A DNA stretch of 64,000 nt from Dudresnaya verticillata (GCA_977862235.1 OZ374559.1:1488001-1552000), one strand, 5' to 3'. Positions 11,044 through 54,800 are shown, counted from the stretch's first letter. Made by a program: numbers and translations. The notes: generated from the letters alone by a model not told the origin.

Positions 11044-11106
11044 AAACAATAAACGTAGAAATTACATGGGAGTTTCAGTGTCACACGCGTACGCGTGCAC
11101 ACGCGG

Positions 11107-16374: not shown

Positions 16375-16586
16375 GAATTGCTCTTGCGTGTGTTTGGAAC
16401 AGGTTTGAAATTGTGTGTCCTTGACACCTCTCGAAGCCTGTACAGGGTAGCTATTTGAACAGTAATGCCGTTGTCAGAGCTGCCTGCATTCATAAAGGCC
16501 TTGGAAGACTTGATGGAACTGACGTGAATGATGAACAAATGAAGCGTCTGTATACTCTGCAATCCAGATTCTGCATCGCGACATTT

Positions 16587-17417
16587 TTAGTCTATGGCCT
16601 TTCCGGAAGCAGTCAACAGTTGCATAGTTGCTAGTTCAGGGACCTCCTCCTTCATTATCTTCCCAATTACATCGATAACGCGACGGTCAAGACGAAGAAC
16701 GGTTGCCGCTGTCTGTTTGATAGTGTTTTCCGATAGGTGACTGCATCCATCATATGCTTCGGCAACTGCCGTCGCAGTCGGAGTCTTCCCATTACTGGCT
16801 TCGAGACGGTCTGCCTCTTTCCTAAGACCGCATATCTGATCGTAAAACGTGGTCTCTACAAAAAGGCTGGAGTCGTGCTTTCTGTTCTGATGACGAGCCA
16901 GTTGCTTCAGAATCTGGATGTTGTGCCCCCCTTTAAGCACAGTGGCAGTCAAAGCAAACCCCTTCCATGTCTCCCGGTCTTCATCGATTAGCTCCATAAT
17001 GGCGATAAGTCGATGCATGCCATCAACAACTCCGAACCACTCCGACCAACTGGAGGCCTCTTCTTTCACCTGTTTCTCTGTGTACTCTGTCCCATCCGTA
17101 TTCCGTTTAGCTCGGAGAAACTCAAAAATGAAACTCCTGAAGGGACCTGTTAGGCGAGCCAGTATGGGCGCATCAGAACCGGCAATGTACCCGTTGTTGT
17201 AGTTAGCGCTCCTCGTCCCACCGCCCCTGAAAATCTTCTTGAGCCTCTCAACACCGGATCTCGAGATGTCCCTTATATCAGTCATCGGAACACAGGACCT
17301 GGGGTCTATTCGAATGTTGGTAGACCCCTCCATGACATCTGCAAACAGTGCCTGTGCCATCTCCTCCTTCCTCAAGGGCTCACTTGACCCCCTGCTCCGC
17401 TTCTTGCGCTTCGACAT
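16587..17417 (-). pseudogene. ParB/Sulfiredoxin-like N-terminal domain with a basic NLS-like start; N-terminal part of the same gene
   Basis: MSKRKKRSR start, IRDISRSGVERLK and FGVVDGMHRLIAI (ParB-like DGxHR). Coding-like sequence bridges to the MTase ORF across frameshifts. Confidence 0.7.
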
Positions 17418-19945: not shown

Positions 19946-19961
19946 TCTGTAGGTTGCAATG

Positions 19962-20994
19962 TGTTGAGGACATGGTCGCTGGCGCCTCACGTCACGGGTC
20001 AGGCACCCCAGATGGCACCCTGGCACGCTGTCACCAAACCTTCCGGAGACGACAGCCCTTTTTCCGGGCTTCCAAAATCACGGCGCATTTAGGCCTTTTG
20101 CAAAAGCAACGTGAAACGGGCTTCTGATTGGTTGTTACAAACCGCCTCCATGGTCTATATGGCTTACAAGTGTTGTGCTGGAATTGGCGGTTATAACAGG
20201 AACGGCCAAGTGGAACGATCTGATTGGACCACATGGATGCACGTGGTATGGCATGGAATGGTACTGGTATGACGCGCACTGTACTCCACAAGTACACATG
20301 AACGTGCCATGCAATGTGCTGATGGCGTCTGAGTTGGTACTGCAGGGACTTGCGCTACGTGGAGCCTGGCTTGTGATATCAGCAGATGCAGTTGTCGTGC
20401 GGCCGACACGTTGGTTTACAGTTGGCACGTAGCTGTCGTGCGGCCGACACGTTGGTTTACGGTTATCACGTAGCTGTCGTGCGGCCGACACGTTGGTTTA
20501 CAGCTGCCACGTAGGCAAATCTGGGTGATTACGTGGTCAATGATCCAAGTTGGATATTCATGGACGGACTTCAGCTCGTAAGTGCGGCCACGTGGTATGC
20601 AGTGTTGTCCGACAGCAGCCATGCGGGGACACTCGATACTTTCGAGTTCCCGCCCAAAGTTGGAGTACATATGGATGGCAGGAAATGCGGTCGCAAGAGG
20701 GATTGCTGATGTCAGCAGTTAGCAACACTGGTGTGCAAGTTCCCGCCCATTTTGGTGGCGGATGTGAGTGTGCTGAGAGTATGATTTGGTAGATTTAATT
20801 GCTTTACTTTTTCCCGCCCATTTGATGATAGGGATTTTGGGCGTTTCTTTAATGATTTGTTTTGTTTGTGTTCACGCAGCAACTCATCCGAAAAGCTGAT
20901 ATAAGCCATGTCGGATGGTCGACTGCAGTAAACGAAGTCAAGCGACTTCCATTTCTCATCTTGTTCAACTCCAACCTCTCCATATTCCTTTTCA
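19962..20994 (+). repeat. Copia LTR1 (1,033 bp)
   Basis: TGTTGAGGA...CCTTTTCA; contains three 41-bp ACGT-rich repeats at 20393-20513. Left flank CAATG. Confidence 0.97.
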
Positions 20995-21008
20995 GGTTAT
21001 GGGCCCAG
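20995..21008 (+). promoter_or_regulatory. PBS complementary to the tRNAiMet half-molecule (Drosophila copia/Ty5 type); also at 29457, 30582, 36879, 38004 and 50807-50820 (-)
   Basis: GGTTATGGGCCCAG directly after the LTR. Confidence 0.9.
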
Positions 21009-23960
21009 AAGGTCGACCTACGCAGACTTCATCGCTTCGCTGCAACCTTCTTCCTTTTTCTTTTCATTCTTGATACTGTCCTGTCCCGTCCTGGCCTGTC
21101 CTGTCTGCTTGTGTCCTGTCCCGTCGGCTTGTGTCCTGTCCTGTCTGCTTGTTGTCTGTTGAAAGTGGTCCCTATCCCACTGTGTCGGCTTGTGTCTCTG
21201 ATTTTGTGAGAGAGTTCTCGAGGCTCTCGTCCGCTGTTGTCTTGGTCCGTGAGCTTGCTGAGAGGTTGAGTGTTGTGCGTGGTGACTCTCGTTAAGTCAG
21301 GACCTCGTTGGCCTAGGGGAGCAGCCTCCAGTAAGATCCAGAACCTTGACACGGTTGGGCCTAGTTCCATTCCTGTAAGAGACTGGACCTGTTCGTGTGG
21401 TGAACACTCGTTTTGAGTTAGTACCCATAAGGTGGACGTCTCGTAAGGATTGCATACTTCGTGTCTGTGTGCGCACGACACGAAAGGGCTGCTGAAAGAC
21501 GCATTTCACCCGGAGAATCATATCCGGGGGCCAGGAGTCCGACTCCTAGGGGTGACTAGGTAGAACCTGGTGCCAGAACATCCCGCGTCAAAAAGACGTT
21601 CAACTATCAAGAATCAACTTTTCAACTTCAAGTTTCAACTTTTCTTCTTCAGTCCAGGTGATCCCATCATCACCTGAGAGTTTCATTACTCCAAGCGTGG
21701 GAGCTATTTGGCAAAGTGTGCTCCGCTTGTGACTGTATTATATTACCGACGTGTTCGACACATTTCTCAGTTTCGTCGTCACGTCTTCGTTGTGTGAGCT
21801 GCACTGCTCTGCTTAACACGACTATTACCCTCTGGGCATCGACACTGTTGCACTAACAGCACTGCCCCAAGTTTACCAAGTTTTCTAAAACTATTCAAGT
21901 TATCTCTTCTCACCACCAGTCGCAACAGCGATGACTGATACCGAAGCCGAGATGGATACTTCGAGCGGGGTCAAGATACCCCGTTTCCACGGCAGGAGAG
22001 GTGACGACTACAGTCTCTGGCGTCATCGCCTTCGTGCCGCATGCCGCATCAAAGGGGTTTGGAATGTTGTCCACACCTCAAACGACACACCGAGCAGCTC
22101 ACAGTCAACTGGAGAGGCCTCAGCGGATACTTCCATTCTTCACGCCAGAACCTTGGCCAAACGTGAGAAGGCTTGCGGGATCATTATCTCCGCACTTGGT
22201 GATGCTCCGCTTCGTGTCGTTATGGAGGTTGATGATGACCCCAAACGCATGCTGGAGCTATTGGACTCGCGCTATGCGTCCAGTCGAACCGTATCCCGTA
22301 TCGCCGTACAGACCAAGCTATTCCGTATGACGTACACCGGTCAGAATATGTCCAGCTATGTCGACCAGTACACGTCACTGTTCGCCCAACTCGACCGCAT
22401 GGGCAACGACTCGGCGATACCGGAGACACATAAGGCACCTATGCTGCTTGCTTCCATTGATCCGTCCTGCCACCTGGAGTCAACAGCTGCAGCTCTTCGC
22501 ACCAAAGATGCTGCTGAGCTGACTTGGGACTACGTCGCAACCACGCTGATCGATGAGTACAACGCCAAAGATTGTCATGGATCAAACGCAGGTGGGAGAT
22601 CCAGTAAGTCGAAGAGTCGTCGGAAGAAGAAAAAGAAGTCCGCGTCGTCAGGTTCTCGCCAGCAACACAACCCGCTGGATGACAACGACGACTCCGATGA
22701 CTCTTCTGATATTGAATCCACCGTCCGTGCGTTGGCGGTTGCACTCAAGTCCGCCAAGCAGGCTCACTCCACCCCGAACCGGCACCTTCACTGTGATGTT
22801 TGCGACAAGGATGGACACACCGCGGATCGATGCTATCTCAATCCGGAAAATCCTAACAACAAGCTTCCTCCAAAGGTGCGACAGATGTTCACCAACCAGG
22901 GCAAAAAGGGCAACGCCAACTCGGCGGTAGCTGCATCTGGTAAGAACAATGGTAAATCTGCAAAGGTAGAAATCGCCGGTGCATCGGTTTCATCGGTTGA
23001 GATGACTACTGTTGTTCCTACGAACGACCAAGGAACGTATGCCGACAGTGGAGCAACTGTGCATTGCTTCCACTCAATGACTTCTTTTGTACCGAGCTCA
23101 GTATCGCGCTGCGAAAAGCGTACTGTAGTGCTTGCGGACAAGTCGTCTGTCACCTCAGACCTATGTGGAGATGTGATTCTGCCGTTTGAGCATGCTAATA
23201 TTCGGCTCAAGAAGGCCCTCTTCATCCCGCAGATGGGATACAATCTTGTCTCTACTGGGCGTTTGGCAGATAAAGGAATTGAATCCCACTTTCGCCGCTT
23301 GGACGTGCGCTTGGTACTCGACTCTGATGGGTACTATATTGGATCCGGTGTTCGCGGTGCGAGTTCTGGAATGTACATGCTACCAGAACCCGAGCCGCAC
23401 ACTTCGGAGGAGCAAGTACTGGCTGTCCCCAGCACGCAGCAAACTACTGAGCTCTGGCATCGACGTCTTGCCCACATTAATTTTCGGGACTTGGCCAAAG
23501 TGCACGAGCATGTTGAGGGTGTTCCGGAGTTGGGCTCCACTCATGAAGTGTGTCGGGCTTGTAGGCTTGGGAAAGCACACAAACAATCATTCCCAGGGCA
23601 CTTCCGCCCGGCCAAAGCTGTCGGTGATCTCGTGCATTCCGATATTGTTGGTCCAATCCAGATCTCCTTTCCCGATCGTTTCCGGTATGCCACGACGTTT
23701 CTGGATGACAAATCCCGTTTCTTGGTCGTCGCATGTATGAGAAGTCGCCGTATGTTGAGTGCAGCATTTGATCAAGCTTCAGCAAAGTTTATCGAGCTTG
23801 GAGGAGCGGAAATAACAAAACTCCACTCAGACGGGGCTCAGGAGTATTTGGCTTTGCAGAAAGATTTGGGAGGAGTTGGAGACAGTGGCAAATCCTTCTC
23901 CCCACCTTATACTCCGGAGCTCAATGGAATCGCGGAAAGGGTGAACCGAACCATGGTGGA

Positions 23961-26900
23961 TAATAAGGAATATGGAGAGGTTGGAGTTGAACAAGATGAG
24001 AAATGGAAGTCGCTTGACTTCGTTTACTGCAGTCGACCATCCGACATGGCTTATATCAGCTTTTCGGATGAGTTGCTGCGTGAACACAAACAAAACAAAT
24101 CATTAAAGAAACGCCCAAAATCCCTATCATCAAATGGGCGGGAAAAAGTAAAACAATTAAATCCACCAAATCATACTCTCAGCACACTCACATCCGCCAC
24201 CAAAATGGGCGGGAACTTGCACACCAGTGTTGCTAACTGCTGACATCAGCAATCCCTCTTGCGACCGCATTTCCTGCCATCCATATGTACTCCAACTTTG
24301 GGCGGGAACGTGAAAGTATCGAGTGTCCCCGCATGGCTGCTGTCGGACAACACTGCACACCACGTGGCCGCACTTACGAGCTGAAGTCCGTCCATGAATA
24401 TCCAACTTGGATCATTGACCACGTAATCACCCAGATTTGCCTACGTGGCAGCTGTAAACCAACGTGTCGGCCGCACGACAGCTACGTGATAACTGTAAAC
24501 CAACGTGTCGGCCGCACGACAGCTACGTGCCAACTGTAAACCAACGTGTCGGCCGCACGACAACTGCATCTCCTGATATCACAAGTCAGGCTCCACGTAG
24601 CGCAAGTCCCTGCAGTACCAACTCAGACGCCATCAGCACATTGCATGGCACGTTCATGTGTACTTGTGGAGTACAGTGCGCGTCATACCAGTACCATTCC
24701 ATGCCATACCACGTGCATCCATGTGGTCCAATCAGATCGTTCCACTTGGCCGTTCCTGTTATAACCGCCAATTCCAGCACAACACTTGTAAGCCATATAG
24801 ACCATGGAGGCGGTTTGTAACAACCAATCAGAAGCCCGTTTCACGTTGCTTTTGCAAAAGGCCTAAATGCGCCGTGATTTTGGAAGCCCGGAAAAAGGGC
24901 TGTCGTCTCCGGAAGGTTTGGTGAAAGCGTGCCAGGGTACCATCTGGGGTACCTGACCCGTGACGTGAGGCGCCAGCGACCATGTCCTCAACACTCCTCC
25001 TCGATGGCTCCTCCAAGTCCAACCCTTGGTAGAATCCTATTGAGCAAAGTGGGCCCGAGTGGCTTTGTCAGCAAGTCCGCGTCGTTGTCTTCTGACGGCA
25101 CATACACCACTTCCAGAACAGAGTCGGCGACAAGTTCGCGAATGAAGTGTACACGAACGTCGATGTGCTTGGCACGACCAGACGGACAGCGTTCTCCAGT
25201 AGCCCAATTGATGGCAGACTGGTTGTCTGATCTCAATGGAACCGGGCCTTCGACGTTCAAGTCGGCCTCCTTCAGCACTCGCGTGACCCAAACCGTCTCT
25301 TTCGCAGCCAGAGTCATTGCATAGTACTCCGACTCGCAAGTTGAGAGAGCAACAGTTGACTGCTTCTTGGATCCCCAAATACACACTGCATCTCCCAGTT
25401 TCACCATGTAACCAGACATAGATTTTCGGTCTGTGGTGTCACCGGCATAGTCAGCGTCCACATAAGCTTGGATACGAGTGCTTCCGGACTGGTACGTAAC
25501 TCCATGCTTGTGAGTGCCTCGAAGATATCGCAGAACCCTCTTTACACCACGGTGACAGTACGCAGTTGGAGCCTTCTGGAACCGTGCGAGGATAAGCACA
25601 GAGGCCAAAATGTCCAGCCTTGTGCGAAGCCCCAAGTACAGAAGTGACCCGATCATCTGCTGGTACGTCTCAACCGACACGACGGCCTTGTCCTCTTCGG
25701 CGGCAAGTCCAGTGAAGAAAGACTCAACCATCGGCGTACAAGCCGGCTTAGAGTTCTGAAGTCCAAATCGACGAAGAACACTTTCCGTGTAGACCTGTTG
25801 AGTCATCTTGAGGGACACAAATCTGCCATCAGAGTCTAGCTTCCATCCAAGCTCGACTCCGAGGAAGAGGTCAACCCCTTCAGACAGCCGTAGATCGTAG
25901 AGGCCCTGCAGTTCCTTAACAATGGCGTCTCTCTCCGCCTTTCTGGGCGCGAGGATGAGCAAGTCATCAACGTACACCAAGATGTATGCGTATCCAGAAG
26001 ACTTGGATTGATCATGGATTTGCGACGAAACACGCAAGGTGCACTTGGCAATTCCTCAAACATCATCCTAGCAAGGTCACCACACAGCTTGGTGTGCCAA
26101 GCTAGGTGAGCCTGTTTTAGCCCATACATAGCTTTCAGAAGTTTGTAACAGAGAGATTCCCTTCCAGGAATCCCACGCGGTGACATTACCCACACGTGTT
26201 CTGCCAGATCACCATTCAGGAAAGCCGTCTTCACGTCTAGCTGTGCAACAAACAGGTTCAAACACAGTACCAAGTATAGGAACATGCGCACCAGCGAGAA
26301 CGACACAACTGGGGCGTATGTTTCCATGTAGTCTTCACCATACGTCTGGAAGTTTCCACCAGCGACGACCCGCGCTTTGAAGCGCTCGACCGTCCCGTCG
26401 GACTTGCGTTTAACTTTCAGCACGGCGTGCGTTGGAAGCGGCTGTGCATCGGGACTGTCATCACGGACCCAAGTGCCTTTGGATTCCAAGGATGCGAACT
26501 CATCATCAATGGCAGATTGCCACAACCCGCGCTCCTCCGGAGTGGCAGACATGGCCTCTCGAAGAGTGGGCTCATCTCCAGTTGTGAGGGCAACCTGTTG
26601 TTCAGCTTGTGCAGAGCTTGCCATAAACCATTTCGACGTCTGGCGACGTTGGCGACGAGGATATCGACTCTGTTGGTGGCGTTCTGGATCTGAACTCACA
26701 CCAGCCGGAGGACTGTTAGAGACGTTTTCTTCCTCAGCCGTGTCATCAGATTCGAATGAGCTGGGTTCTGATGGAGGTAGTGGAGGTGAAGAAGGTGTGT
26801 CAACTTCAATCGCATCCTCTTCATCCTCAAAGTTACCCAGCGACACATCGTCATCAGAGTCCGAGTTGAAAATAGAGGCCTCTGAGTTAGACTCGTAATC

Positions 26901-28671
26901 TTCATCCGAATCTGCCTCGTCCTGCCCATATTCCAACAGGCTTGGAGCACCCGGGAATTTGGACTCGTCGAATGTGACATGCCGCGACTCAACCACACGA
27001 GGTATACCGTCACCGCCAGTGACCAATATCCTGTAGATCCCATGCTCTAGAGTCTCCAAGTGCACCCCCTCAAGTGCACGAGACTCGAACTTGGATCCGC
27101 GTGGGAGCCTTAGGACATATGCAGCACATCCAAACACTCTTAAATGTTTTAAATCAGGAACATCACCTGTCATGACCGAGTATGGCGTAGCCCCAACGGT
27201 TGAGTGTGGTACCCGATTGCGCACGTAGTTGACATGCTTCAGGGCAAACGGCCACAAACATCCCGGTAGATCAGCCTGGATCAGCAATGAAAGTCAGGGC
27301 AGCTTCCACCATGGTTCGGTTCACCCTTTCCGCGATTCCATTGAGCTCCGGAGTATAAGGTGGGGAGAAGGATTTGCCACTGTCTCCAACTCCTCCCAAA
27401 TCTTTCTGCAAAGCCAAATACTCCTGAGCCCCGTCTGAGTGGAGTTTTGTTATTTCTGCTCCTCCAAGCTCGATAAACTTTGCTGAAGCTTGATCAAATG
27501 CTGCACTCAACATACGGCGACTTCTCATACATGCGACGACCAAGAAACGGGATTTGTCATCCAGAAACGTCGTGGCATACCGGAAACGATCGGGAAAGGA
27601 GATCTGGATTGGACCAACAATATCGGAATGCACGAGATCACCGACAGCTTTGGCCGGGCGGAAGTGCCCTGGGAATGATTGTTTGTGTGCTTTCCCAAGC
27701 CTACAAGCCCGACACACTTCATGAGTGGAGCCCAACTCCGGAACACCCTCAACATGCTCGTGCACTTTGGCCAAGTCCCGAAAATTAATGTGGGCAAGAC
27801 GTCGATGCCAGAGCTCAGTAGTTTGCTGCGTGCTGGGGACAGCCAGTACTTGCTCCTCCGAAGTGTGCGGCTCGGGTTCTGGTAGCATGTACATTCCAGA
27901 ACTCGCATCGCGAACACCGGATCCAATATAGTACCCATCAGAGTCGAGTACCAAGCGCACGTCCAAGCGGCGAAAGTGGGATTCAATTCCTTTATCTGCC
28001 AAACGCCCAGTAGAGACAAGATTGTATCCCATCTGCGGGATGAAGAGGGCCTTCTTGAGCCGAATATTGGCATGCTCAAACGGCAGAATCACATCTCCAC
28101 ATAGGTCTGAGGTGACAGACGACTTGTCCGCAAGCACTACAGTACGCTTTTCGCAGCGCGATACTGAGCTCGGTACAAAAGAAGTCATTGAGTGGAAGCA
28201 ATGCACAGTTGCTCCACTGTCGGCATACGTTCCTTGGTCGTTCGGAGGAACAACGGTAGTCATCTCAACCGATGCACCGGCGATTTCTACCTTTGCAGAT
28301 TTACCATTATTCTTACCAGATGCAGCTACCGCCGAGTTGGCGTTGCCCTTTTTGCCCTGGTTGGTGAACATCTGTCGCACCTTTGGAGGAAGCTTGTTGT
28401 TAGGATTTTCCGGATTGAGATAGCATCGATCCGCGGTGTGTCCATCCTTGTCGCAAACATCACAGTGAAGGTGCCGGTTCGGGGTGGAGTGAGCCTGCTT
28501 GGCGGACTTGAGTGCAACCGCCAACGCACGGACGGTGGATTCAATATCAGAAGAGTCATCGGAGTCGTCGTTGTCATCCAGCGGGTTGTGTTGCTGGCGA
28601 GAACCTGACGACGCGGACTTCTTTTTCTTCTTCCGACGACTCTTCGACTTACTGGATCTCCCACCTGCGTT
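23961..28671 (-). mobile_element. Copia copy B: 3' LTR2 (23961-24993), PPT and frameshifted pol; gag truncated
   Basis: ORF pieces 24988-26037, 25836-27287 and 27271-28671; frameshifts caused by 11-bp (26009) and 4-bp (27288) insertions. Confidence 0.96.
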
Positions 28672-31517
28672 TGTGGAACGATCTGATTGGACCACATGGA
28701 TGCACGTGGTATGGCATGGAATGGTACTGGTATGACGCGCACTGTACTCCACAAGTACATATGAACGTGCCATGCAATGTGCTGATGGCGTCTGAGTTGG
28801 TACTGCAGGGACTTGCGCTACGTGGAGCCTGGCTTGTGATATCAGCAGATGCAGTTGTCGTGCGGCCAACACGTCGGTTTACAGTTGCCACGTAGCTGTC
28901 GTGCGCCCGACACGTTGGTTTACAGTTGCCACGTAGGTGTCGTGCGGCCGACACGTTGGTTTACAGCTGCCACGTAGGCAAATCTGGGTGATTACGTGGT
29001 CAATGATCCAAGTTGGATATTCATGGACGGACTTCAGCTCGTAAGTGCGGCCACGTGGTATGCAGTGTTGTCCGACAGCAGTCATGCGGGGACACTCGAT
29101 ACTTTCGAGTTCCCGCCCAAAGTTGGAGTACATATGGATGGCAGGAAATGCGGTCGCAAGAGGGATTGCTGATGTCAGCAGTTAGCAACACTGGTGTGCA
29201 AGTTCCCGCCCATTTTGGTGGCGGATGTGAGTGTGCTGAGAGTATGATTTGGTAGATTTGATTGCTTTACTTTTTCCCGCCCATTTGATGATAGGGATTT
29301 TGGGCGTTTCTTTAATGATTTGTTTTGTTTGTGTTCACGCAGCAACTCATCCGAAAAGCTGATATAAGCCATGTCGGATGGTCGACTGCAGTAAACGAAG
29401 TCAAGCGACTTCCATTTCTCATCTTGTTCAACTCCAACCTCTCCATATTTCTTTAAGGTTATGGGCCCAGAAGGTCGACCTACGCAGACTTCATCGCTTC
29501 GCTGCAACCTTCTTCCTTTTTCTTTTCATTCTTGATACTGTCCGGTCCTGTTGAGGACATGGTCGCTGGCGCCTCACGTCACGGGTCAGGTACCCCAGAT
29601 GGTACCCTGGCACGCTTTCACCAAACCTTCCGGAGACGACAGCCCTTTTTCCGGGCTTCCAAAATCACGGCGCATTTAGGCCTTTTGCAAAAGCAACGTG
29701 AAACGGGCTTCTGATTGGTTGTTACAAACCGCCTCCATGGTCTATATGGCTTACAAGTGTTGTGCTGGAATTGGCGGTTATAACAGGAACGGCCAAGTGG
29801 AACGATCTGATTGGACCACATGGATGCACGTGGTATGGCATGGAATGGTGTTGGTATGACTCGCACTGTACTCCACAAGTACACATGAACCTGCCATGCA
29901 ATGTGCTGATGGCGTCCGAGTTGGTACTGCAGGGACTTGCGCTACGTGGAGCCTGGCTTGTGATATCAGCAGATGCAGTTGTCGTGCGGCCGACACGTTG
30001 GTTTACAGTTGGCACGTAGCTGTCGTGCGGCCGACACGTTGGTTTACAGTTTTCACGTAGCTGTCGTGCGGCCGACACGTTGGTTTACAGCTGCCACGTA
30101 GGCAAATCTGGTTGATTACGTGGTCAATGATCCAAGTTGGATATTCATGGACGGACTTGAGCTGGTAAGTGCGGCCACGTGGTGTGCAGTGTTGTCCGAC
30201 AGCAGCCATGCGGGGACACTCGATACTTTCACGTTCCCGCCCAAAGTTGGAGTACATATGGATGGCAGGAAATGCGGTCGCAAGAGGGATTGCTGATGTC
30301 AGCAGTTAGCAACACTGGTGTACAAGTTCCCGCCCATTCTGGTGGCGGATGTGAGTGTGCTGAGAGCATGATTTGGTAGATTTAATTGCTTTACTTTTTC
30401 CCGCCCATTTGATGATAGGGATTTTGGGCGTTTCTTTAATGATTTGTTTTGTTTGTGTTCACGCAGCAACTCATCCGAAAAGCTGATATAAGCCATGTCG
30501 GATGATCGACTGCAGTAAACGAAGTCAAGCGACTTCCATTTCTCATCTTGTTCAACTTCAACCTCTCCATATTCCTTTTCAGGTTATGGGCCCAGAAGGT
30601 CGACCTACGCAGACTTCATCGCTTCGCTGCAACCTTCTTCCTTTTTCTTTTCATTCTTGATACTGTCCGGTCCCGTCCTGGCCTGTCCTGTCTGCTTGTG
30701 TCCTGTCCTGTCGGCTTGTGTCCTGTCCTGTCTGCTTGTTGTCTGTTGAAAGTGGTCCCTATCCCACTGTGTTGGCTTGTGTCTCTGATTTTGTGAGAGA
30801 GTTCTCGAGGCTTTCGTCCGCTGTTGTCTTGGTCCGTGAGCTTGCTGAGAGGTTGAGTGTTGTGCGTGGTGACTCTCGTTAAGTCAGGACCTCGTTGGCC
30901 TAGGGGAGCAGCCTCCAGTAAGATCCAGAACCTTGACACGGTTGGGCCTAGTTCCATTCCTGCAAGAGACTGGACCTGTTCGTGTGGTGAACACTCGTTT
31001 TGAGTTAGTACCCATAAGGTGGACGTCTCGTAAGGATTGCATACTTCGTGTCTGTGTGCGCACGACACGAAAGGGCTGCTGAAAGACGCATTTCACCCGG
31101 AGAATCATATCCGGGGGCCAGGAGTCCGACTCCTAGGGGTGACTAGGTAGAACCTGGTGCCAGAACATCCCGCGTCAAAAAGACGTTCAACTATCAAGAA
31201 TCAACTTTTCAACTTCAAGTTTCAACTTTTCTTCTTCAGTCCAGGTGATCCCATCATCACCTGAGAGTTTCATTACTCCAAGCGTGGGAGCTACTTGGCA
31301 AAGTGTGCTCCGCTTGTGACTGTATTATATTACCGACGTGTTCGACACATTTCTCAGTTTCGTCGTCACGTCTTCGTTGTGTGAGCTGCACTGCTCTGCT
31401 TAACACGACTATTACCCTCTGGGCATCGACACTGTTGCACTAACAGCACTGCCCCAAGTTTACCAAGTTTTCTAAAACTATTCAAGTTATCTCTTCTCAC
31501 CACCAGTCGCAACAGCG

Positions 31518-38800: not shown

Positions 38801-38939
38801 GTGTGAGCTGCACTGCTCTGCTTAACACGACTATTACCCTCTGGGCATCGACACTGTTGCACTAACAGCACTGCCCCAAGTTTACCAAGTTTTCTAAAAC
38901 TATTCAAGTTATCTCTTCTCACCACCAGTCGCAACAGCG

Positions 38940-41900: not shown

Positions 41901-43274
41901 CGGGTCGTCGCTGGTGGAAACTTCCAGACGTATGGTGAAGACTACATGGAAACATACGCCCCAGTTGTGTCGTTCTCGCTGGTGCGCATGTTCCTATACT
42001 TGGTACTGTGTTTGAACCTGTTTGTTGCACAGCTAGACGTGAAGACGGCTTTCCTGAATGGTGATCTGGCAGAACACGTGTGGGTAATGTCACCGCGTGG
42101 GATTCCTGGAAGGGAATCTCTCTGTTACAAACTTCTGAAGGCTATGTATGGGCTAAAACAGGCTCACCTAGCTTGGCACACCAAGCTGTGTGGTGACCTT
42201 GCTAGGATGATGTTTGAGGAATTGCCAAGTGCACCTTGCGTGTTTCGTCGCAAATCCAAGTCTTCTGGATACGCATACATCTTGGTGTACGTTGATGACT
42301 TGCTCATCCTCGCGCCCAGAAAGGCGGAGAGAGACGCCATTGTTAAGGAACTGCAGGGCCTCTACGATCTACGGCTGTCTGAAGGGGTTGACCTCTTCCT
42401 CGGAGTCGAGCTTGGATGGAAGCTAGACTCTGATGGCAGATTTGTGTCCCTCAAGATGACTCAACAGGTCTACACGGAAAGTGTTCTTCGTCGATTTGGA
42501 CTTCAGAACTCTAAGCCGGCTTGTACGCCGATGGTTGAGTCTTTCTTCACTGGACTTGCCGCCGAAGAGGACAAGGCCGTCGTGTCGGTTGAGACGTACC
42601 AGCAGATGATCGGGTCACTTCTGTACTTGGGGCTTCGCACAAGGCTGGACATTTTGGCCTCTGTGCTTATCCTCGCACGGTTCCAGAAGGCTCCAACTGC
42701 GTACTGTCACCGTGGTGTAAAGAGGGTTCTGCGATATCTTCGAGGCACTCACAAGCATGGAGTTACGTACCAGTCCGGAAGCATTCGTATCCAAGCTTAT
42801 GTGGACGCTGACTATGCCGGTGACACCACAGACCGAAAATCTATGTCTGGTTACATGGTGAAACTGGGAGATGCAGTGTGTATTTGGGGATCCAAGAAGC
42901 AGTCAACTGTTGCTCTCTCAACTTGCGAGTCGGAGTACTATGCAATGACTCTGGCTGCGAAAGAGACGGTTTGGGTCACGCGAGTGCTGAAGGAGGCCGA
43001 CTTGAACGTCGAAGGCCCGGTTCCATTGAGATCAGACAACCAGTCTGCCATCAATTGGGCTACTGGAGAACGCTGTCCGTCTGGTCGTGCCAAGCACATC
43101 GACGTTCGTGTACACTTCATTCGCGAACTTGTCGCCGACTCTGTTCTGGAAGTGGTGTATGTGCCGTCAGAAGACAACGACGCGGACTTGCTGACAAAGC
43201 CACTCGGCCCCACTTTGCTCAATAGGATTCTACCAAGGGTTGGACTTGGAGGAGCCATCGAGGAGGAGTGTTGA
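38940..43274 (+). CDS. Ty1/copia Gag-Pol polyprotein, duplicate of 31518-35852
   Basis: The ORF-track translation appears identical, including the YADMLHDSG insertion. Confidence 0.97.
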   Translation: MTDTEAEMDTSSGVKIPRFHGRRGDDYSLWRHRLRAACRIKGVWNVVHTSNDTPSSSQSTGEASADTSILHARTLAKREKACGIIISALGDAPLRVVMEVDDDPKRMLELLDSRYASSRTVSRIAVQTKLFRMTYTGQNMSSYVDQYTSLFAQLDRMGNDSAIPETHKAPMLLVSIDPSCHLESTAAALRTKDAAELTWDYVATTLIDEYNAKDSHGSNAGGRSSKSKSRRKKKKKSASSGSRQQHNTLDDNDDSDDSSDIESTVRALAVALKSAKQAHSTPNRHLHCDVCDKDGHTADRCYLNPENPNNKLPPKVRQMFTNQGKKGNANSAVAASGKNNGKSAKVEIAGASVEMTTVVPPNDQGTYADMLHDSGATVHCFHSMTSFVPSSVSRCEKRTVVLADKSSVTSDLCGDVILPFEHANIRLKKALFIPQMGYNLVSTGRLADKGIESHFRRLDVRLVLDSDGYYIGSGVRDASSGMYMLPEPEPHTSEEQVLAVPSTQQTTELWHRRLAHINFRDLAKVHEHVEGVPELGSTHEVCRACRLGKAHKQSFPGHFRPAKAVGDLVHSDIVGPIQISFPDRFRYATTFLDDKSRFLVVACMRSRRMLSAAFDQASAKFIELGGAEITKLHSDGAQEYLALQKDLGGVGDSGKSFSPPYTPELNGIAERVNRTMVEAALTLLIQADLPGCLWPFALKHVNYVRNRVPHSTVGATPYSVMTGDVPDLKHLRVFGCAAYVLRLPRGSKFESRALEGVHLETLEHGIYRILVTGGDGIPRVVESRHVTFDESKFPGAPSLLEYGQDEADSDEDYESNSEASIFNSDSDDDVSLGNFEDEEDAIEVDTPSSPPLPPSEPSSFESDDTAEEENVSDSPPAGVSSDPERQQQSRYPRRQRRQTSKWFMASSAQAEQQVALTTGDEPTLREAMSATPEERGLWQSAIDDEFASLESKGTWVRDDSPGAQPLPTHAVLKVKRKSDGTVERFKARVVAGGNFQTYGEDYMETYAPVVSFSLVRMFLYLVLCLNLFVAQLDVKTAFLNGDLAEHVWVMSPRGIPGRESLCYKLLKAMYGLKQAHLAWHTKLCGDLARMMFEELPSAPCVFRRKSKSSGYAYILVYVDDLLILAPRKAERDAIVKELQGLYDLRLSEGVDLFLGVELGWKLDSDGRFVSLKMTQQVYTESVLRRFGLQNSKPACTPMVESFFTGLAAEEDKAVVSVETYQQMIGSLLYLGLRTRLDILASVLILARFQKAPTAYCHRGVKRVLRYLRGTHKHGVTYQSGSIRIQAYVDADYAGDTTDRKSMSGYMVKLGDAVCIWGSKKQSTVALSTCESEYYAMTLAAKETVWVTRVLKEADLNVEGPVPLRSDNQSAINWATGERCPSGRAKHIDVRVHFIRELVADSVLEVVYVPSEDNDADLLTKPLGPTLLNRILPRVGLGGAIEEEC

Positions 43275-44300
43275 GGACATGGTCGCTGGCGCCTCACGTC
43301 ACGGGTCAGGTACCCCAGATGGTACCCTGGCACGCTTTCACCAAACCTTCCGGAGACGACAGCCCTTTTTCCGGGCTTCCAAAATCACGGCGCATTTAGG
43401 CCTTTTGCAAAAGCAACGTGAAACGGGCTTCTGATTGGTTGTTACAAACCGCCTCCATGGTCTATATGGCTTACAAGTGTTGTGCTGGAATTGGCGGTTA
43501 TAACAGGAACGGCCAAGTGGAACGATCTGATTGGACCACATGGATGCACGTGGTATGGCATGGAATGGTACTGGTATGACGCGCACTGTACTCCACAAGT
43601 ACATATGAACGTGCCATGCAATGTGCTGATGGCGTCTGAGTTGGTACTGCAGGGACTTGCGCTACGTGGAGCCTGGCTTGTGATATCAGCAGATGCAGTT
43701 GTCGTGCGGCCAACACGTCGGTTTACAGTTGCCACGTAGCTGTCGTGCGCCCGACACGTTGGTTTACAGTTGCCACGTAGGTGTCGTGCGGCCGACACGT
43801 TGGTTTACAGCTGCCACGTAGGCAAATCTGGGTGATTACGTGGTCAATGATCCAAGTTGGATATTCATGGACGGACTTCAGCTCGTAAGTGCGGCCACGT
43901 GGTATGCAGTGTTGTCCGACAGCAGTCATGCGGGGACACTCGATACTTTCGAGTTCCCGCCCAAAGTTGGAGTACATATGGATGGCAGGAAATGCGGTCG
44001 CAAGAGGGATTGCTGATGTCAGCAGTTAGCAACACTGGTGTGCAAGTTCCCGCCCATTTTGGTGGCGGATGTGAGTGTGCTGAGAGTATGATTTGGTAGA
44101 TTTGATTGCTTTACTTTTTCCCGCCCATTTGATGATAGGGATTTTGGGCGTTTCTTTAATGATTTGTTTTGTTTGTGTTCACGCAGCAACTCATCCGAAA
44201 AGCTGATATAAGCCATGTCGGATGGTCGACTGCAGTAAACGAAGTCAAGCGACTTCCATTTCTCATCTTGTTCAACTCCAACCTCTCCATATTTCTTTTA

Positions 44301-47300
44301 CCGCCAATTCCAGCACAACACTTGTAAGCCATATAGACCATGGAGGCGGTTTGTAACAACCAATCAGAAGCCCGTTTCACGTTGCTTTTGCAAAAGGCCT
44401 AAATGCGCCGTGATTTTGGAAGCCCGGAAAAAGGGCTGTCGTCTCCGGAAGGTTTGGTGACAGCGTGCCAGGGTGCCATCTGGGGTGCCTGACCCGTGAC
44501 GTGAGGCGCCAGCGACCATGTCCTCAACACTCCTCCTCGATGGCTCCTCCAAGTCCAACCCTTGGTAGAATCCTATTGAGCAAAGTGGGCCCGAGTGGCT
44601 TTGTCAGCAAGTCCGCGTCGTTGTCTTCTGACGGCACATACACCACTTCCAGAACAGAGTCGGCGACAAGTTCGCGAATGAAGTGTACACGAACGTCGAT
44701 ATGCTTGGCACGACCAGATAGACAGCGTTCTCCAGTAGCCCAATTGATGGCAGACTGGTTGTCTGATCTCAATGGAACCGGGCCTTCGACGTTCAAGTCG
44801 GCCTCCTTCAGCACTCGCGAGACCCAAACCGTCTCTTTCGCAGCCAGAGTCATTGCATAGTACTCCGACTCGCAAGTTGTGAAAAGGAATATGGAGAGGT
44901 TGAAGTTGAACAAGATGAGAAATGGAAGTCGCTTGACTTCGTTTACTGCAGTCGATCATCCGACATGGCTTATATCAGCTTTTCGGATGAGTTGCTGCGT
45001 GAACACAAACAAAACAAATCATTAAAGAAACGCCCAAAATCCCTATCATCAAATGGGCGGGAAAAAGTAAAGCAATTAAATCTACCAAATCATGCTCTCA
45101 GCACACTCACATCCGCCACCAGAATGGGCGGGAACTTGTACACCAGTGTTGCTAACTGCTGACATCAGCAATCCCTCTTGCGACCGCATTTCCTGCCATC
45201 CATATGTACTCCAACTTTGGGCGGGAACGTGAAAGTATCGAGTGTCCCCGCATGGCTGCTGTCGGACAACACTGCACACCACGTGGCCGCACTTACCAGC
45301 TCAAGTCCGTCCATGAATATCCAACTTGGATCATTGACCACGTAATCACCCAGATTTGCCTACGTGGCAGCTGTAAACCAACGTGTCGGCCGCACGACAG
45401 CTACGTGATAACTGTAAACCAACGTGTCGGGCGCACGACAGCTACGTGGCAACTGTAAACCAACGTGTCGGCCGCACGACAACTGCATCTGCTGATATCA
45501 CAAGTCAGGCTCCACGTAGCGCAAGTCCCTGCAGTACCAACTCGGACGCCATCAGCACATTGCATGGCAGGTTCATGTGTACTTGTGGAGTACAGTGCGA
45601 GTCATACCAACACCATTCCATGCCATACCACGTGCATCCATGTGGTCCAATCAGATCGTTCCACTTGGCCGTTCCTGTTATAACCGCCAATTCCAGCACA
45701 ACACTTGTAAGCCATATAGACCATGGAGGCGGTTTGTAACAACCAATCAGAAGCCTGTTTCACGTTGCTTTTGCAAAAGGCCTAAATGCGCCGTGATTTT
45801 GGAAGCCCGGAAAAAGGGCTGTCGTCTCCGGAAGGTTTGGTGAAAGCGTGCCAGGGTACCATCTGGGGTACCTGACCCGTGACGTGAGGCGCCAGCGACC
45901 ATGTCCTCAACAAGTTGAGAGAGCAACAGTTGACTGCTTCTTGGATCCCCAAATACACACTGCATCTCCCAGTTTCACCATGTAACCAGACATAGATTTT
46001 CGGTCTGTGGTGTCACCGGCATAGTCAGCGTCCACATAAGCTTGGATACGAGTGCTTCCGGACTGGTACGTAACTCCATGCTTGTGAGTGCCTCGAAGAT
46101 ATCGCAGAACCCTCTTTACACCACGGTGACAGTACGCAGTTGGAGCCTTCTGGAACCGTGCGAGGATAAGCACAGAGGCCAAAATATCCAGCCTTGTGCG
46201 AAGCCCCAAGTACAGAAGTGACCCGATCATCTGCTGGTACGTCTCAACCGACACGACGGCCTTGTCCTCTTCGGCGGCAAGTCCAGTGAAGAAAGACTCA
46301 ACCATCGGCGTACAAGCCGGCTTAGAGTTCTGAAGTCCAAATCGACGAAGAACACTTTCCGTGTAGACCTGTTGAGTCATCTTGAGGGACACAAATCTGC
46401 CATCAGAGTCTAGCTTCCATCCAAGCTCGACTCCGAGGAAGAGGTCAACCCCTTCAGACAGCCGTAGATCGTAGAGGCCCTGCAGTTCCTTAACAATGGC
46501 GTCTCTCTCCGCCTTTGTGGGTGCGAGGATGAGCAAGTCATCAACGTACACCAAGATGTATGCGTATCCAGAAGACTTGGATTTGCGACGAAACACGCAA
46601 GGTGCACTTGGCAATTCCTCAAACATCATCCTAGCAAGGTCACCACACAGCTTGGTGTGCCAAGCTAGGTGAGCCTGTTTTAGCCCATACATAGCCTTCA
46701 GAAGTTTGTAACAGAGAGATTCCCTTCCAGGAATCCCACGCGGTGACATTACCCACACGTGTTCTGCCAGATCACCATTCAGGAAAGCCGTCTTCACGTC
46801 TAGCTGTGCAACAAACAGGTTCAAACACAGTACCAAGTATAGGAACATGCGCACCAGCGAGAACGACACAACTGGGGCGTATGTTTCCATGTAGTCTTCA
46901 CCATACGTCTGGAAGTTTCCACCAGCGACGACCCGCGCTTTGAAGCGCTCGACGGTCCCGTCGGACTTGCGTTTAACTTTCAGCACGGCGTGCGTTGGAA
47001 GCGGCTGTGCATCGGGACTGTCATCACGGACCCAAGTGCCTTTGGATTCCAAGGATGCGAACTCATCATCAATGGCAGATTGCCACAACCCGCGCTCCTC
47101 CGGAGTGGCAGACATGGCCTCTCGAAGAGTGGGCTCATCTCCAGTTGTGAGGACAACCTGTTGTTCAGCTTGTGCAGAGCTTGCCATAAACCATTTCGAC
47201 GTCTGGCGACGTTGGCGACGAGGATATCGACTCTGTTGCTGGCGTTCTGGGTCTGAACTCACACCAGCCGGAGGATTGTCAGAGACGTTTTCTTCCTCAG

Positions 47301-50300: not shown

Positions 50301-51853
50301 TCCGGGTGAAATGCGTCTTTCAGCAGCCCTTTCGTGTCGTGCGCACACAGACACGAAGTATGCAATCCTTACGAGACGTCCACCTTATGGGTACTAACTC
50401 AAAACGAGTGTTCACCACACGAACAGGTCCAGTCTCTTGCAGGAATGGAACTAGGCCCAACCGTGTCAAGGTTCTGGATCTTACTGGAGGCTGCTCCCCT
50501 AGGCCAACGAGGTCCTGACTTAACGAGAGTCACCACGCACAACACTCAACCTCTCAGCAAGCTCACGGACCAAGACAACAGCGGACGAGAGCCTCGAGAA
50601 CTCTCTCACAAAATCAGAGACACAAGCCAACACAGTGGGATAGGGACCACTTTCAACAGACAACAAGCAGACAGGACAGGACACAAGCCGACAGGACAGG
50701 ACACAAGCAGACAGGACAGGCCAGGACGGGACCGGACAGTATCAAGAATGAAAAGAAAAAGGAAGAAGGTTGCAGCGAAGCGATGAAGTCTGCGTAGGTC
50801 GACCTTCTGGGCCCATAACCTGTAAAGGAATATGGAGAGGTTGAAGTTGAACAAGATGAGAAATGGAAGTCGCTTGACTTCGTTTACTGCAGTCGACCAT
50901 CCGACATGGCTTATATCAGCTTTTCGGATGAGTTGCTGCGTGAACACAAACAAAACAAATCATTAAAGAAACGCCCAAAATCCCTATCATCAAATGGGCG
51001 GGAAAAAGTAAAGCAATTAAATCTACCAAATCATGCTCTCAGCACACTCACATCCGCCACCAAAATGGGCGGGAACTTGCACACCAGTGTTGCTAACTGC
51101 TGACATCAGCAATCCCTCTTGCGACCGCATTTCCTGCCATCCATATGTACTCCAACTTTGGGCGGGAACGTGAAAGTATCGAGTGTCCCCGCATGGCTGC
51201 TGTCGGACAACACTGCACACCACGTGGCCGCACTTACCAGCTCAAGTCCGTCCATGAATATCCAACTTGGATCATTGACCACGTAATCAACCAGATTTGC
51301 CTACGTGGCAGCTGTAAACCAACGTGTCGGCCGCACGACAGCTACGTGAAAACTGTAAACCAACGTGTCGGCCGCACGACAGCTACGTGCCAACTGTAAA
51401 CCAACGTGTCGGCCGCACGACAACTGCATCTGCTGATATCACAAGCCAGGCTCCACGTAGCGCAAGTCCCTGCAGTACCAACTCGGACGCCATCAGCACA
51501 TTGCATGGCACGTTCATATGTACTTGTGGAGTACAGTGCGCGTCATACCAGTACCATTCCATGCCATACCACGTGCATCCATGTGGTCCAATCAGATCGT
51601 TCCACTTGGCCGTTCCTGTTATAACCGCCAATTCCAGCACAACACTTGTAAGCCATATAGACCATGGAGGCGGTTTGTAACAACCAATCAGAAGCCCGTT
51701 TCACGTTGCTTTTGCAAAAGGCCTAAATGCGCCGTGATTTTGGAAGCCCGGAAAAAGGGCTGTCGTCTCCGGAAGGTTTGGTGACAGCGTGCCAGGGTGC
51801 CATCTGGGGTGCCTGACCCGTGACGTGAGGCGCCAGCGACCATGTCCTCAACA
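44301..51853 (-). mobile_element. Copia copy D: 5' LTR10 (50821-51853), PBS, polyprotein interrupted by a solo LTR, partial 3' LTR8 (44301-44529)
   Basis: ORF 49884-45913 resumes at 44879-44524 (CESEYY..EEEC). Confidence 0.96.
44880..45912 (-). repeat. Solo copia LTR9 inside the RNase H of copy D, 5-bp TSD AGTTG
   Basis: AGTTG at 44875-44879 and 45913-45917 flanks a full 1,033-bp LTR. Confidence 0.97.
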
Positions 51854-54800
51854 GACGGTATACCTCGTGTGGTTGAGTCGCGGCATGTCACATTCGACGA
51901 GTCCAAATTCCCGGGTGCTCCAAGCCTGTTGGAATATGGGCAGGACGAGGCAGATTCGGATGAAGATTACGAGTCTAACTCAGAGGCCTCTATTTTCAAC
52001 TCGGACTCTGATGACGATGTGTCGCTGGGTAACTTTGAGGATGAAGAGGATGCAATTGAAGTTGACACACCTTCTTCAGCTCCACTACCTCCATCAGAAC
52101 CCAGCTCATTCGAATCTGATGACACGGCTGAGGAAGAAAACGTCTCTGACAGTCCTCCGGCTGGTGTGAGTTCAGATCCAGAACGCCAGCAACAGAGTCG
52201 ATATCCTCGTCGCCAACGTCGCCAGACGTCGAAATGGTTTATGGCGAGCTCTGCACAAGCTGAACAACAGGTTGCCCTCACAACGGGAGATGAGCCCACT
52301 CTTCGAGAGGCCATGTCTGCCACTCCGGAGGAGCGCGGGTTGTGGCAATCTGCCATTGATGATGAGTTCGCATCCTTGGAATCCAAAGGCACTTGGGTCC
52401 GTGATGACAGTCCCGGTGCACAGCCGCTTCCAACGCACGCCGTGCTGAAAGTTAAACGCAAGTCCGACGGGACCGTCGAGCGCTTCAAAGCGCGGGTCGT
52501 CGCTGGTGGAAACTTCCAGACGTATGGTGAAGACTACATGGAAACATACGCCCCAGTTGTGTCGTTCTCGCTGGTGCGCATGTTCCTATACTTGGTACTG
52601 TGTTTGAACCTGTTTGTTGCACAGCTAGACGTGAAGACGGCTTTCCTGAATGGTGATCTGGCAGAACACGTGTGGGTAATGTCACCGCGTGGGATTCCTG
52701 GAAGGGAATCTCTCTGTTACAAACTTCTGAAAGCTATGTATGGGCTAAAACAGGCTCACCTAGCTTGGCACACCAAGCTGTGTGGTGACCTTGCTAGGAT
52801 GATGTTTGAGGAATTGCCAAGTGCACCTTGCGTGTTTCGTCGCAAATCCATGATCAATCCAAGTCTTCTGGATACGCATACATCTTGGTGTACGTTGATG
52901 ACTTGCTCATCCTCGCGCCCAGAAAGGCGGAGAGAGACGCCATTGTTAAGGAACTGCAGGGCCTCTACGATCTACGGCTGTCTGAAGGGGTTGACCTCTT
53001 CCTCGGAGTCGAGCTTGGATGGAAGCTAGACTCTGATGGCAGATTTGTGTCCCTCAAGATGACTCAACAGGTCTACACGGAAAGTGTTCTTCGTCGATTT
53101 GGACTTCAGAACTCTAAGCCGGCTTGTACGCCGATGGTTGAGTCTTTCTTCACTGGACTTGCCGCCGAAGAGGACAAGGCCGTCGTGTCGGTTGAGACGT
53201 ACCAGCAGATGATCGGGTCACTTCTGTACTTGGGGCTTCGCACAAGGCTGGACATTTTGGCCTCTGTGCTTATTCTCGCACGGTTCCAGAAGGCTCCAAC
53301 TGCGTACTGTCACCGCGGTGCAAAGAGGGTTCTGCGATATCTCCGAGGCACTCACAAGCATGGAGTTACGTACCAGTCTGGAAGCATTCGTATCCAAGCT
53401 TATGTGGACGCTGACTATGCCGGTGACACCACAGACCGAAAATCTATGTCTGGTTACATGGTGAAACTGGGAGATGCAGTGTGTATTTGGGGATCCAAGA
53501 AGCAGTCAACTGTTGCTCTCTCAACTTGCGAGTCGGAGTACTATGCAATGACTCTGGCTGCGAAAGAGACGGTTTGGGTCTCGCGAGTGCTGAAGGAGGC
53601 CGACTTGAACGTCGAAGGCCCCGTTCCATTGAGATCAGACAACCAGTCTGCCATCAATTGGGCTACTGGAGAACGCTGTCCATCTGGTCGTGCCAAGCAT
53701 ATCGACGTTCGTGTACACTTCATTCGCGAACTTGTCGCCAACTCTGTTCTGGAAGTGGTGTATGTGCCGTCAGAAGACAACGACGCGGACTTGCTGACAA
53801 AGCCACTCGGGACCACTTTGCTCAATAGGATTCTACCAAGGGTTGGACTTGGAGGAGCCATCGAGGAGGAGTGTTGAGGACATGGTCGCTGGCGCCTCAC
53901 GTCACGGGTCAGGCACCCCAGATGGCACCCTGGCACGCTGTCACCAAACCTTCCGGAGACGACAGCCCTTTTTCGGGGCTTCCAAAATCACGGCGCATTT
54001 AGGCCTTTTGCAAAAGCAACGTGAAACGGGCTTCTGATTGGTTGTTACAAACCGCCTCCATGGTCTATATGGCTTACAAGTGTTGTGCTGGAATTGGCGG
54101 TTATAACAGGAACGGCCAAGTGGAACGATCTGATTGGACCACATGGATGCACGTGGTATGGCATGGAATGGTGTTGGTATGACTCGCACTGTACTCCACA
54201 AGTACACATGAACCTGCCATGCAATGTGCTGATGGCGTCCGAGTTGGTACTGCAGGGACTTGCGCTACGTGGAGCCTGACTTGTGATATCAGCAGATGCA
54301 GTTGTCGTGCGGCCGACACGTTGGTTTACAGTTGCCACGTAGCTGTCGTGCGGCCGACACGTTGGTTTACAGTTATCACGTAGCTGTCGTGCGGCCGACA
54401 CGTTGGTTTACAGCTGCCACGTAGGCAAATCTGGGTGATTACGTGGTCAATGATCCAAGTTGGATATTCATGGACGGACTTGAGCTGGTAAGTGCGGCCA
54501 CGTGGTGTGCAGTGTTGTCCGACAGCAGCCATGCGGGGACACTCGATACTTTCACGTTCCCGCCCAAAGTTGGAGTACATATGGATGGCAGGAAATGCGG
54601 TCGCAAGAGGGATTGCTGATGTCAGCAGTTAGCAACACTGGTGTGCAAGTTCCCGCCCATTCTGGTGGCGGATGTGAGTGTGCTGAGAGCATGATTTGGT
54701 AGATTTAATTGCTTTACTTTTTCCCGCCCATTTGATGATAGGGATTTTGGGCGTTTCTTTAATGATTTGTTTTGTTTGTGTTCACGCAGCAACTCATCCG

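Follow-up and report, generated by a model that had tools for sequence, protein, structure and literature searches.

Small insertions consisting of a 5-bp target-site duplication (TSD) around a few nucleotides of the TG..CA type were analyzed in a stretch of 64,000 nucleotides (nt) of Dudresnaya verticillata DNA (GCA_977862235.1, OZ374559.1:1488001-1552000; G+C content, 54%), referred to here as the window, which harbors a nest of one copia family of retrotransposons with long terminal repeats (LTRs). The scar pattern is a real and unusual footprint, the donors of which are probably LTR elements. Derivation of the scars from such elements, by removal or by aborted integration, is somewhat favored, and the narrower reading, that integrated copia-type LTR copies were cut out within about 4 bases of each end, is put forward tentatively. 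The evidence base comprises the 64-kb window plus relatives from other assemblies.

A first-pass annotation of this DNA had interpreted seven intervals as TSDs enclosing fused LTR termini. The sequence of all seven intervals matches the citation exactly, and all of the scar sites are present; however, they represent only five independent events, since two of the sites are duplicated copies, and two of the five are weak. The sites are the following (the lettered copia copies are described further below):

16527..16542, minus strand: scar 1, TCATT-TGTTCA-TCATT, 11 inserted nt that cause a frameshift in a PF01555 DNA-methyltransferase gene
22984..22997, plus strand: scar 2 (weak), TCGGT-TTCA-TCGGT, a 9-nt in-frame insertion in copia copy A
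26004..26019, minus strand: scar 3, ATCCA-TGATCA-ATCCA, an 11-nt insertion in copy B that disrupts the open reading frame (ORF)
52846..52861, plus strand: scar 3, second copy, in copy H, within a 799-nt tract (52475-53273)
27283..27295, minus strand: scar 4 (weak), GACT-TTCA-TTGCT, a 4-nt insertion without a 5-bp duplication in copy B
32621..32637, plus strand: scar 5, CGACA-TGTTACA-CGACA, a 12-nt insertion in copy D
40043..40059, plus strand: scar 5, second copy, in copy E (identical tandem duplication)

At three sites, a 5-bp duplication flanking TG..CA is robust, with the fillers TGTTCA, TGATCA and TGTTACA, while the two TTCA sites are weaker: 22984 reads equally well as an 8-bp duplication plus T, and 27283 parses as a 2-bp duplication plus CA. 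The site at 26004 can alternatively be parsed as a 6-bp duplication. Scar 3 at 26004 and 52846 is counted as one event because both sites lie in the tract over which copies B and H are identical for 799 nt, yet 20 of 2,018 sites differ between these copies overall; such an identical tract in inverted copies suggests that gene conversion, recombination or a template switch copied the scar. The sites at 32621 and 40043 are likewise one event, located within an 8,204-nt tandem duplication with no mismatches. Scar 5 is in frame and adds four residues directly ahead of the protease DSGA motif, and therefore the ORF of copies D and E remains open. The breakpoint of copy A (23960, element position ~4002) is located 14 nt from the position of scar 4 (~4016), which may point to a hotspot.

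Comparison with sister copies supplied empty alleles at the four copia sites, as had been claimed, with inserts of 9, 12, 11 and 4 nt. In pairwise alignments of 19.2 kb of internal copia sequence to copy D, four multi-base indels were detected, and these are the four copia scar sites; each of the four allows a parse with a terminal CA followed by a 5-mer, and two of them show TG..CA with an exact 5-bp duplication. The four extra residues at 32621 are absent from all 15 homologous polyproteins. In the methyltransferase gene, the reading frame changes exactly at the 11-nt insert of scar 1, as judged against eight of ten homologs, which show the conserved stretch DCRV(Y/F)R(K/R/N)F(I/V)(N/H)x(S/T)S(I/L)KS; the other two gave no usable stretch in the motif search. 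This site was chosen by its motif, and the insertion was verified afterwards. Judged by sister copies or protein homologs, all five events are insertions.

The probability that a random insert with a 5-bp duplication gives a TG..CA parse is 0.007-0.008, and simple arithmetic from this value gives a chance of ~3 × 10−4 for two of the four copia indels, which were sampled without bias. A general excess of the bare motif, for which the first-pass annotation suggested a genome-wide test, was not observed within the window: N5-TG..CA-N5 occurs three times in 34 kb of non-redundant sequence versus 1.7 ± 1.4 in 100 Markov shuffles. One match, ACTTC-TGCA-ACTTC at 16149, was discarded as a chance occurrence, with no insertion versus homologs. 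The scar signal comes from verified insertions rather than from the frequency of the bare motif. That the scars are products of ordinary break repair or slippage, i.e., short tandem duplications with a filler that is random or templated, or microhomology deletions that by chance end near both termini, is very unlikely. The chance frequency of the bare motif, the false positive at 16149 and the alternative parses of 22984 and 27283 are in line with such repair, but it leaves the three robust sites unexplained, and nothing would make deletions of 1-7 kb halt less than about 4 nt from either terminus. Hairpin repair of the hAT type, which leaves palindromes of the flank according to the available text of PMC4561436, was rejected, as the CA side of the filler is not a palindrome of the duplication at any site; the left side fits a flank palindrome for 2-3 nt at the two sites whose TSD ends in CA. 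The alternative of hairpin P-nucleotides named in the first-pass annotation fails on the same grounds.

The copia nest occupies bases 19962-54904. The LTR of the family is 1,033 nt long (TGTTGAGG...CCTTTTCA), starts with TGTTGA, ends with TTTTCA, and is abutted by the primer-binding site (PBS) GGTTATGGGCCCAG, which we take to be of the half-tRNA-iMet type; the polypurine tract (PPT) is GAGGAGGAG. The order of Pfam domains in the ORF is gag_2, Pol_BBD, gag_pre-integrs, rve, SH3, RVT_2. In agreement with a Ty1/copia assignment, gag, protease, integrase and reverse transcriptase (RT) follow in this order within one ORF flanked by LTRs, and TG..CA LTR ends, a 5-bp TSD, a PBS and a PPT are all found. 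The TSD is 5 bp at both solo LTRs (CAACT and CTCCC). Divergence among the copies is ~0.5% in internal regions and 1-3% in LTRs. The following parts were distinguished:

19962..23960, plus strand: copy A, LTR L1 (19962-20994) and the 5' internal part, truncated
23965..28672, minus strand: copy B, 3' half with LTR L2 (23965-24993)
28673..29548, plus strand: LTR fragment L3p, from LTR position 249, with the PBS and ~90 nt; junction J3 at 28673
29549..36878, plus strand: copy D, LTR L4 (29549-30581), gag-pol ORF and LTR L5 with a TTTAA end
36971..44299, plus strand: copy E, a duplicate of D, with LTR L7
44300..51853, minus strand: copy G+F, split by solo LTR L9; its 5' LTR, L10, is 50821-51853
44880..45912, minus strand: solo LTR L9, with the 5-bp TSD CAACT
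51854..54904, plus strand: copy H, 3' half with LTR L11 (53872-54904)
60772..61804, plus strand: solo LTR L12, with the TSD CTCCC, at the end of a gypsy integrase-chromodomain ORF

The gag-pol ORF of copy D is open over 1,458 codons (31476-35852). Between 28673 and 44298, the window contains a tandem unit of 7,422 nt (LTR, ~90 nt, LTR, internal region) with an 8,204-nt overlap free of mismatches, which may be a very recent unequal crossover or an assembly artefact. Although an error of assembly could account for that duplication, it is extremely improbable as the source of the scars: scar 3 is carried by two oppositely oriented copies, between which 20 other sites differ, and sequencing errors would not write TSD-TG..CA-TSD at independent places.

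The anatomy of the scars, a TSD around bases of element ends, requires a donor with TG..CA ends and a 5-bp TSD. Known candidates of this kind are LTR elements and Ginger2/Tdd transposons, and no element of this kind other than the copia family was found in the window. Its LTR ends are as described earlier, with a TGTT start, a TTCA end and a TTACA end in L10. The filler TGTTCA and both TTCA fillers derive from the standard ends of the family, and TGTTACA fits the end of L10. TGATCA matches no end of the window's own family; it fits the ends of clade relatives from other assemblies, in which the PPT-LTR junctions begin with TGTTGA in four of four cases (L001, L004, L083, L088) and the LTR-PBS junctions end with ATCA in two of three (L001, L003), the third (L008) ending with CTTA. 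Exact fusions of clade ends occur three times in the window versus a mean of 0.09, and none of 300 shuffles reached three, the pattern being chosen post hoc and the null being computed on 34 kb versus the 43 kb observed. The joining of the two ends through a 2-nt microhomology, as proposed in the first-pass annotation, holds for TGTTCA and for no other filler among the standard ends of the family.

A further candidate scar was found among the relatives. Locus L122 (1728-1747), a gypsy contig of assembly G001, reads CGACG-TGTTGAATCA-CGACG, and its remnants, TGTTGA and ATCA, are asymmetric and match the clade ends. Within 28 retroelement contigs (141 kb), no second clade-end fusion was found, and 20 coding-dense contigs contained none; a fusion of this length appeared in one of 150 shuffles. 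Likewise, of the 39 TGTTGA..WTCA matches examined (61 listed, G001 contigs C1-C48), only that of L122 has a perfect duplication. The L122 site is regarded only as a lead, because no empty allele is available for it.

Damage to LTR ends is the third line of evidence. The 5' ends of the listed LTRs are intact in 10 of 10 cases, while 3' ends are altered within the last 4 nt in four of nine independent LTR ends (L2, L7, L3p/L5, L10). Two altered ends are located as follows:

23961..23964, minus strand: junction J2, the 3' end of LTR L2 without its last 4 nt (ATTA instead of TTCA), joined inside copy A
~29452-29456, plus strand: altered 3' end of L3p, TTTAA for TTTTCA

LTR L7 ends with TTTT, without the terminal CA, at the inversion junction J6 (44299/44300), and thus two of the four damaged 3' ends (L2 and L7) sit at rearrangement junctions. 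Breakpoint ends fall within 5 nt of a 3' LTR end in two of six cases (P ~3 × 10−5, post hoc), and for two of seven in-place variants the value is 0.035 (post hoc). The two inversion junctions fit together as TTTT^CA-AACGC, i.e., a break 2 nt inside the LTR end with 0-1 nt lost.

Of the excision proposal made in the first-pass annotation, the footprint nature of the scars is thus supported, and their LTR origin is moderately supported by the filler fit, the damaged 3' ends and L122. According to the tentative reading given above, an integrated full element or solo LTR would receive a break at each terminus, in the simplest case as cuts staggered by 4 nt across TGTT and TTCA. Both TSD copies and up to ~4 terminal bases per side would stay with the flanks, and end-joining would close the gap. 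Overlap of the TT bases would yield TG[TT]CA, loss of one overhang would yield TTCA, and end variants could give TGTTACA (TACA in LTR L10) or TGATCA (ATCA in clade relatives). If just one end were broken, the outcome would be either a changed end that stays in place (L3p) or a rearrangement junction (L2, L7). The integrase of the element, re-binding its ends while a host nuclease cuts the second strand, is predicted to be the cutter; a host-directed nuclease may act instead. The cuts, their geometry and the enzyme are what we infer; the insertions, empty alleles, 5-bp TSD, family ends and 3'-end damage are observed.

The integrase was delimited as follows:

32943..33905, plus strand: integrase region with HHCC, core and SH3 parts; D-D(34)-E

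Its only sequence match in the PDB is 7z0h_W Integrase. The predicted model (mean predicted local distance difference test score, 90.7) has an ordinary HHCC-core-SH3 fold with retroviral intasomes as best matches, and this retroviral-type fold, as modeled, says nothing either way about excision. The D-E spacing is 34 in the window and, in 35 close relatives, 29-33 in 32 and 36-38 in three, with 35 in none; the spacing is 35 in all 24 distant copia rows, so that the canonical D-D(35)-E is not found in the window. Judged from the alignment, the non-canonical spacing appears to be a clade trait, and the copia assignment stands. The integrases of the copia clade show a variable insertion before the second aspartate. 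That a red-algal copia clade with shortened D-E spacing excises itself in a cut-and-paste manner, leaving mariner-like footprints and breaking chromosomes at LTR ends, is improbable; if true, such a clade would represent an extant intermediate linking LTR retrotransposons to DNA transposons of the Ginger type, and it would offer, in addition to the formation of solo LTRs, a route of retrotransposon loss that can be counted.

Several observations weigh against the removal of integrated copies. A full element or solo LTR is seen at no scar site. The standard ends of the window family explain only three of the five fillers exactly, and TGATCA calls for a variant, or a family, that the window does not show. 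All of the end damage is at LTR 3' ends and none at 5' ends, whereas both ends must be cut for excision. On the reciprocal side of the inversion, copy B natively has the CA as well; the TACA of L10, taken by itself, does not exceed ordinary divergence (1.1% per site); and errors of reverse transcription where the LTR meets the PBS, as in Ty1, could yield both L3p and L10. Retroviral-type integrases are known to nick one strand only, and no second nuclease domain was seen in the integrase by Pfam or in the predicted fold. As mentioned above, the window shows no enrichment of the bare motif, and the scars show no demonstrable clustering on copia copies, one being found also in ~8 kb of other checkable ORFs. 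In the case of L122, no empty allele was found among the relatives searched, and the protein of a second assembly carries the same residues. The two remaining points of this kind concern a DNA transposon as the donor: inverted ends starting with TGAA would give TG+TTCA, TTCA, TGA+TCA and TTCA exactly (four of the five fillers), and a 64-kb window is too small to exclude such an element.

This alternative, in which the scars are footprints of a Ginger2/Tdd-like DNA transposon not seen so far, which would have inverted ends of the TG..CA type, a 5-bp TSD and mariner-like excision, with copia as a passive target, is considered rather doubtful. No new chemistry would have to be assumed, the frequency of scars in other ORFs agrees with a process acting genome-wide, and a second terminal inverted repeat (TIR), starting with TGTT or TGTAA, would supply TGTTACA. 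Mariner/Stowaway footprints share the anatomy of the scars (PMC4561436, available text), and in the accessible parts of PMC2836005 the TSD of TDD-4/5 is 5 bp and Ginger2 ends are TGTNR. A search of the window's unique regions, however, revealed no TG..CA TIR element, only one weak 14-kb pair at the mismatch limit, and the cut-and-paste family raised as an alternative in the first-pass annotation has no representative there. The published Ginger2 ends are TGTNR, not TGAA (PMC2836005, accessible parts); TGTTCA and TGTTACA are compatible with TGTT..AACA ends of that type, and TGATCA and TTCA are not. Within the accessible text of the Ginger paper (PMC2836005), the sole red-algal mention is a copia reference, and Ginger is mentioned 0 times in the available main text of the Bostrychia preprint. 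Such a transposon would, moreover, leave the damage to LTR 3' ends unexplained, and the ends at L122 are unlike each other (TGTTGA/ATCA) and match the LTR clade.

An LTR donor without excision is provided by aborted integration, which is judged unlikely. Here, integrase would attach both ends of the complementary DNA (cDNA) at a 5-bp stagger of the target, a nuclease would nick each transferred strand 2-5 nt inside the LTR ahead of gap repair, the cDNA would be lost, and fill-in and ligation would leave TSD-TG..CA-TSD with no integrated element ever present. One nick per side would be needed because the other strand is already gapped, and a single nick per side should suffice, given the established chemistry of integration. 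If two cDNA molecules took part, TGATCA (U5/U5) and TGTTACA (U3/U3) would be exact own-end fusions and all five fillers would fit, although the same holds for 4 of 16 and 8 of 64 random middles. In aberrant or one-ended retroviral integration, LTR ends without terminal bases are joined with target deletions or inversions; J2, an LTR end without its terminal bases, resembles such a product. Fused termini between two TSDs after complete loss of the element are not known from this process. Aborted integration does not account for L3p, which is the 3' end of a 5' LTR and never an integration junction, and the L7 break would be later than integration and LTR-LTR recombination, if the order is reconstructed properly. 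In addition, the scars in the window (five) are about as many as the insertions of the copia family, and a very high failure rate would be implied.

Compared with known systems, the sites proposed here as remnants of removed LTR copies resemble those of Tc1/mariner and Stowaway elements in that both TSD copies are kept around element-end bases (three robust sites, one ambiguous and one without duplication). According to the available text of PMC4561436, mariner/Stowaway footprints consist of both TSDs plus a few end bases and are ascribed to staggered cuts inside the termini followed by end-joining. Unlike in these systems, the duplication is 5 bp and not TA, the remnants are TG..CA, and the candidate donor is an LTR element, the two ends of which differ, rather than a TIR element. 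The precise gypsy excision reported for Drosophila (Kuzin 1994; Nefedova 2006) is described as traceless and ascribed to integrase in the accessible parts of PMC5443660 and PMC3383448; it is similar in that an LTR element is lost by a route that does not involve LTR-LTR recombination. It differs in that the target is not restored here, TSDs and fused termini remain, the element is a copia of a probable red alga, and the evidence consists of genomic scars. Precise excision of the gypsy type was rejected for the present sites, since both TSD copies and the filler persist. As in solo-LTR formation, the element is removed and the TSD is intact, but the scars retain 4-7 nt and not a whole 1,033-nt LTR; solo LTRs were rejected for this reason, and no remnant of intermediate length is present in the window. 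The window likewise showed no longer remnants (TGT..WWCA fillers of at most ~65 nt) and, beyond the nest, no LTR fragments. The 5-bp TSD and TG..CA remnants are shared with Ginger2/Tdd, for which the available parts of PMC2836005 and PMC10045372 give TG..CA ends, a 4-5-bp TSD (5 bp in TDD-4/5) and an integrase-like transposase; in contrast to the copia donor, these elements have 50-180-bp TIRs and no RT (same sources, available parts). The excision mechanism of Ginger1 is stated to be unknown by Bao et al. (PMC2836005, accessible text), and no published footprints of Ginger2/Tdd were found in the literature searched. The remark in the first-pass annotation that no description of the pattern was known agrees with the literature searches, the reach of which ended short of subscription journals, Repbase Reports and bioRxiv supplements, and which brought up no account of LTR-derived TSD-TG..CA-TSD scars.

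LTR insertions are treated as irreversible except for solo-LTR formation and slow erosion, and models of genome size and the dating of insertions depend on that. A stereotyped scar would be a searchable and countable record of near-precise loss or failed integration. The scars would make in vivo excision by LTR integrase, as claimed for gypsy, testable by genome comparison, and also the manner in which Ginger and other DNA transposons of the integrase type leave their sites. Should the donor be a Ginger2-like element, its cleavage geometry could still be read from the scars, which would be a smaller result.

Among the relatives, the closest named ones of the gypsy elements are from Agarophyton chilense and Chondrus crispus, and a red seaweed is accordingly the probable host. 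The LTR-PBS junction of L008 (985-1008) reads CCTTA-GGTTATGGG, without the terminal CA, like L3p in the window. Assembly G001 is a bacterial genome bin with many eukaryotic LTR-retroelement contigs (L083, L086, L121-L136, L159-L166), including a copia 75% identical to the RT region of the window, and these contigs are probably host contamination of the bin; G001 represents a different host, and its rve-bearing contigs were classified solely by similarity to copia/gypsy queries. Three candidates from relatives were rejected: L168 has an apparent LTR start, TGTTGAATCA, but is a bacterial-like contig without a copia match; TGTTGACTTCA at L086:485-495, in the 5' region of a relative, matches the L083 LTR start in its first 7 nt, and its flanks form no clean duplication; and L176 has one mismatch in a bacterial-looking contig. 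No related loci were found in viral contigs, and the five close metagenome loci of 79 (12 kb) contain no clade-end fusion. The 74 distant metagenome loci yielded five short fusions in 623 kb, two of them identical, and were not used, with no matched null.

Outside the copia nest, the gene carrying scar 1 was delimited as follows:

14377..17417, minus strand: broken PF01555 DNA-methyltransferase gene with scar 1 and two other small frameshifts

The further frameshifts are near 16590 and 16410, the N-terminal region is uncharacterised, and full-length homologs have 890-1,010 amino acids. According to the available text of a preprint (bioRxiv 10.1101/2025.02.11.637652), a PF01555 accessory gene is present in giant DNA transposons of red seaweeds, there also together with SET. 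In two gypsy pol regions, the frameshifts are 1-nt shifts and stops, and no scar was seen there. The flanks of the nest (19484-19961 and 54905-55330) are unrelated, with a weak AAA-ATPase-like ORF on the left and a gypsy pol fragment on the right, and the flanking 5-mers are CAATG (left) versus TTAAC (right); therefore, the nest joins two loci or conceals a large deletion. Two stretches, 10400-10933 and 55333-55904, are 73% identical, start with TGTGG/TGTAG, and are probably ends of related gypsy elements. Additional gypsy remnants lie at ~4600-9630 and 61805-64000; the intervals 11103-11422 and 12744-13046 hold tandem repeats.

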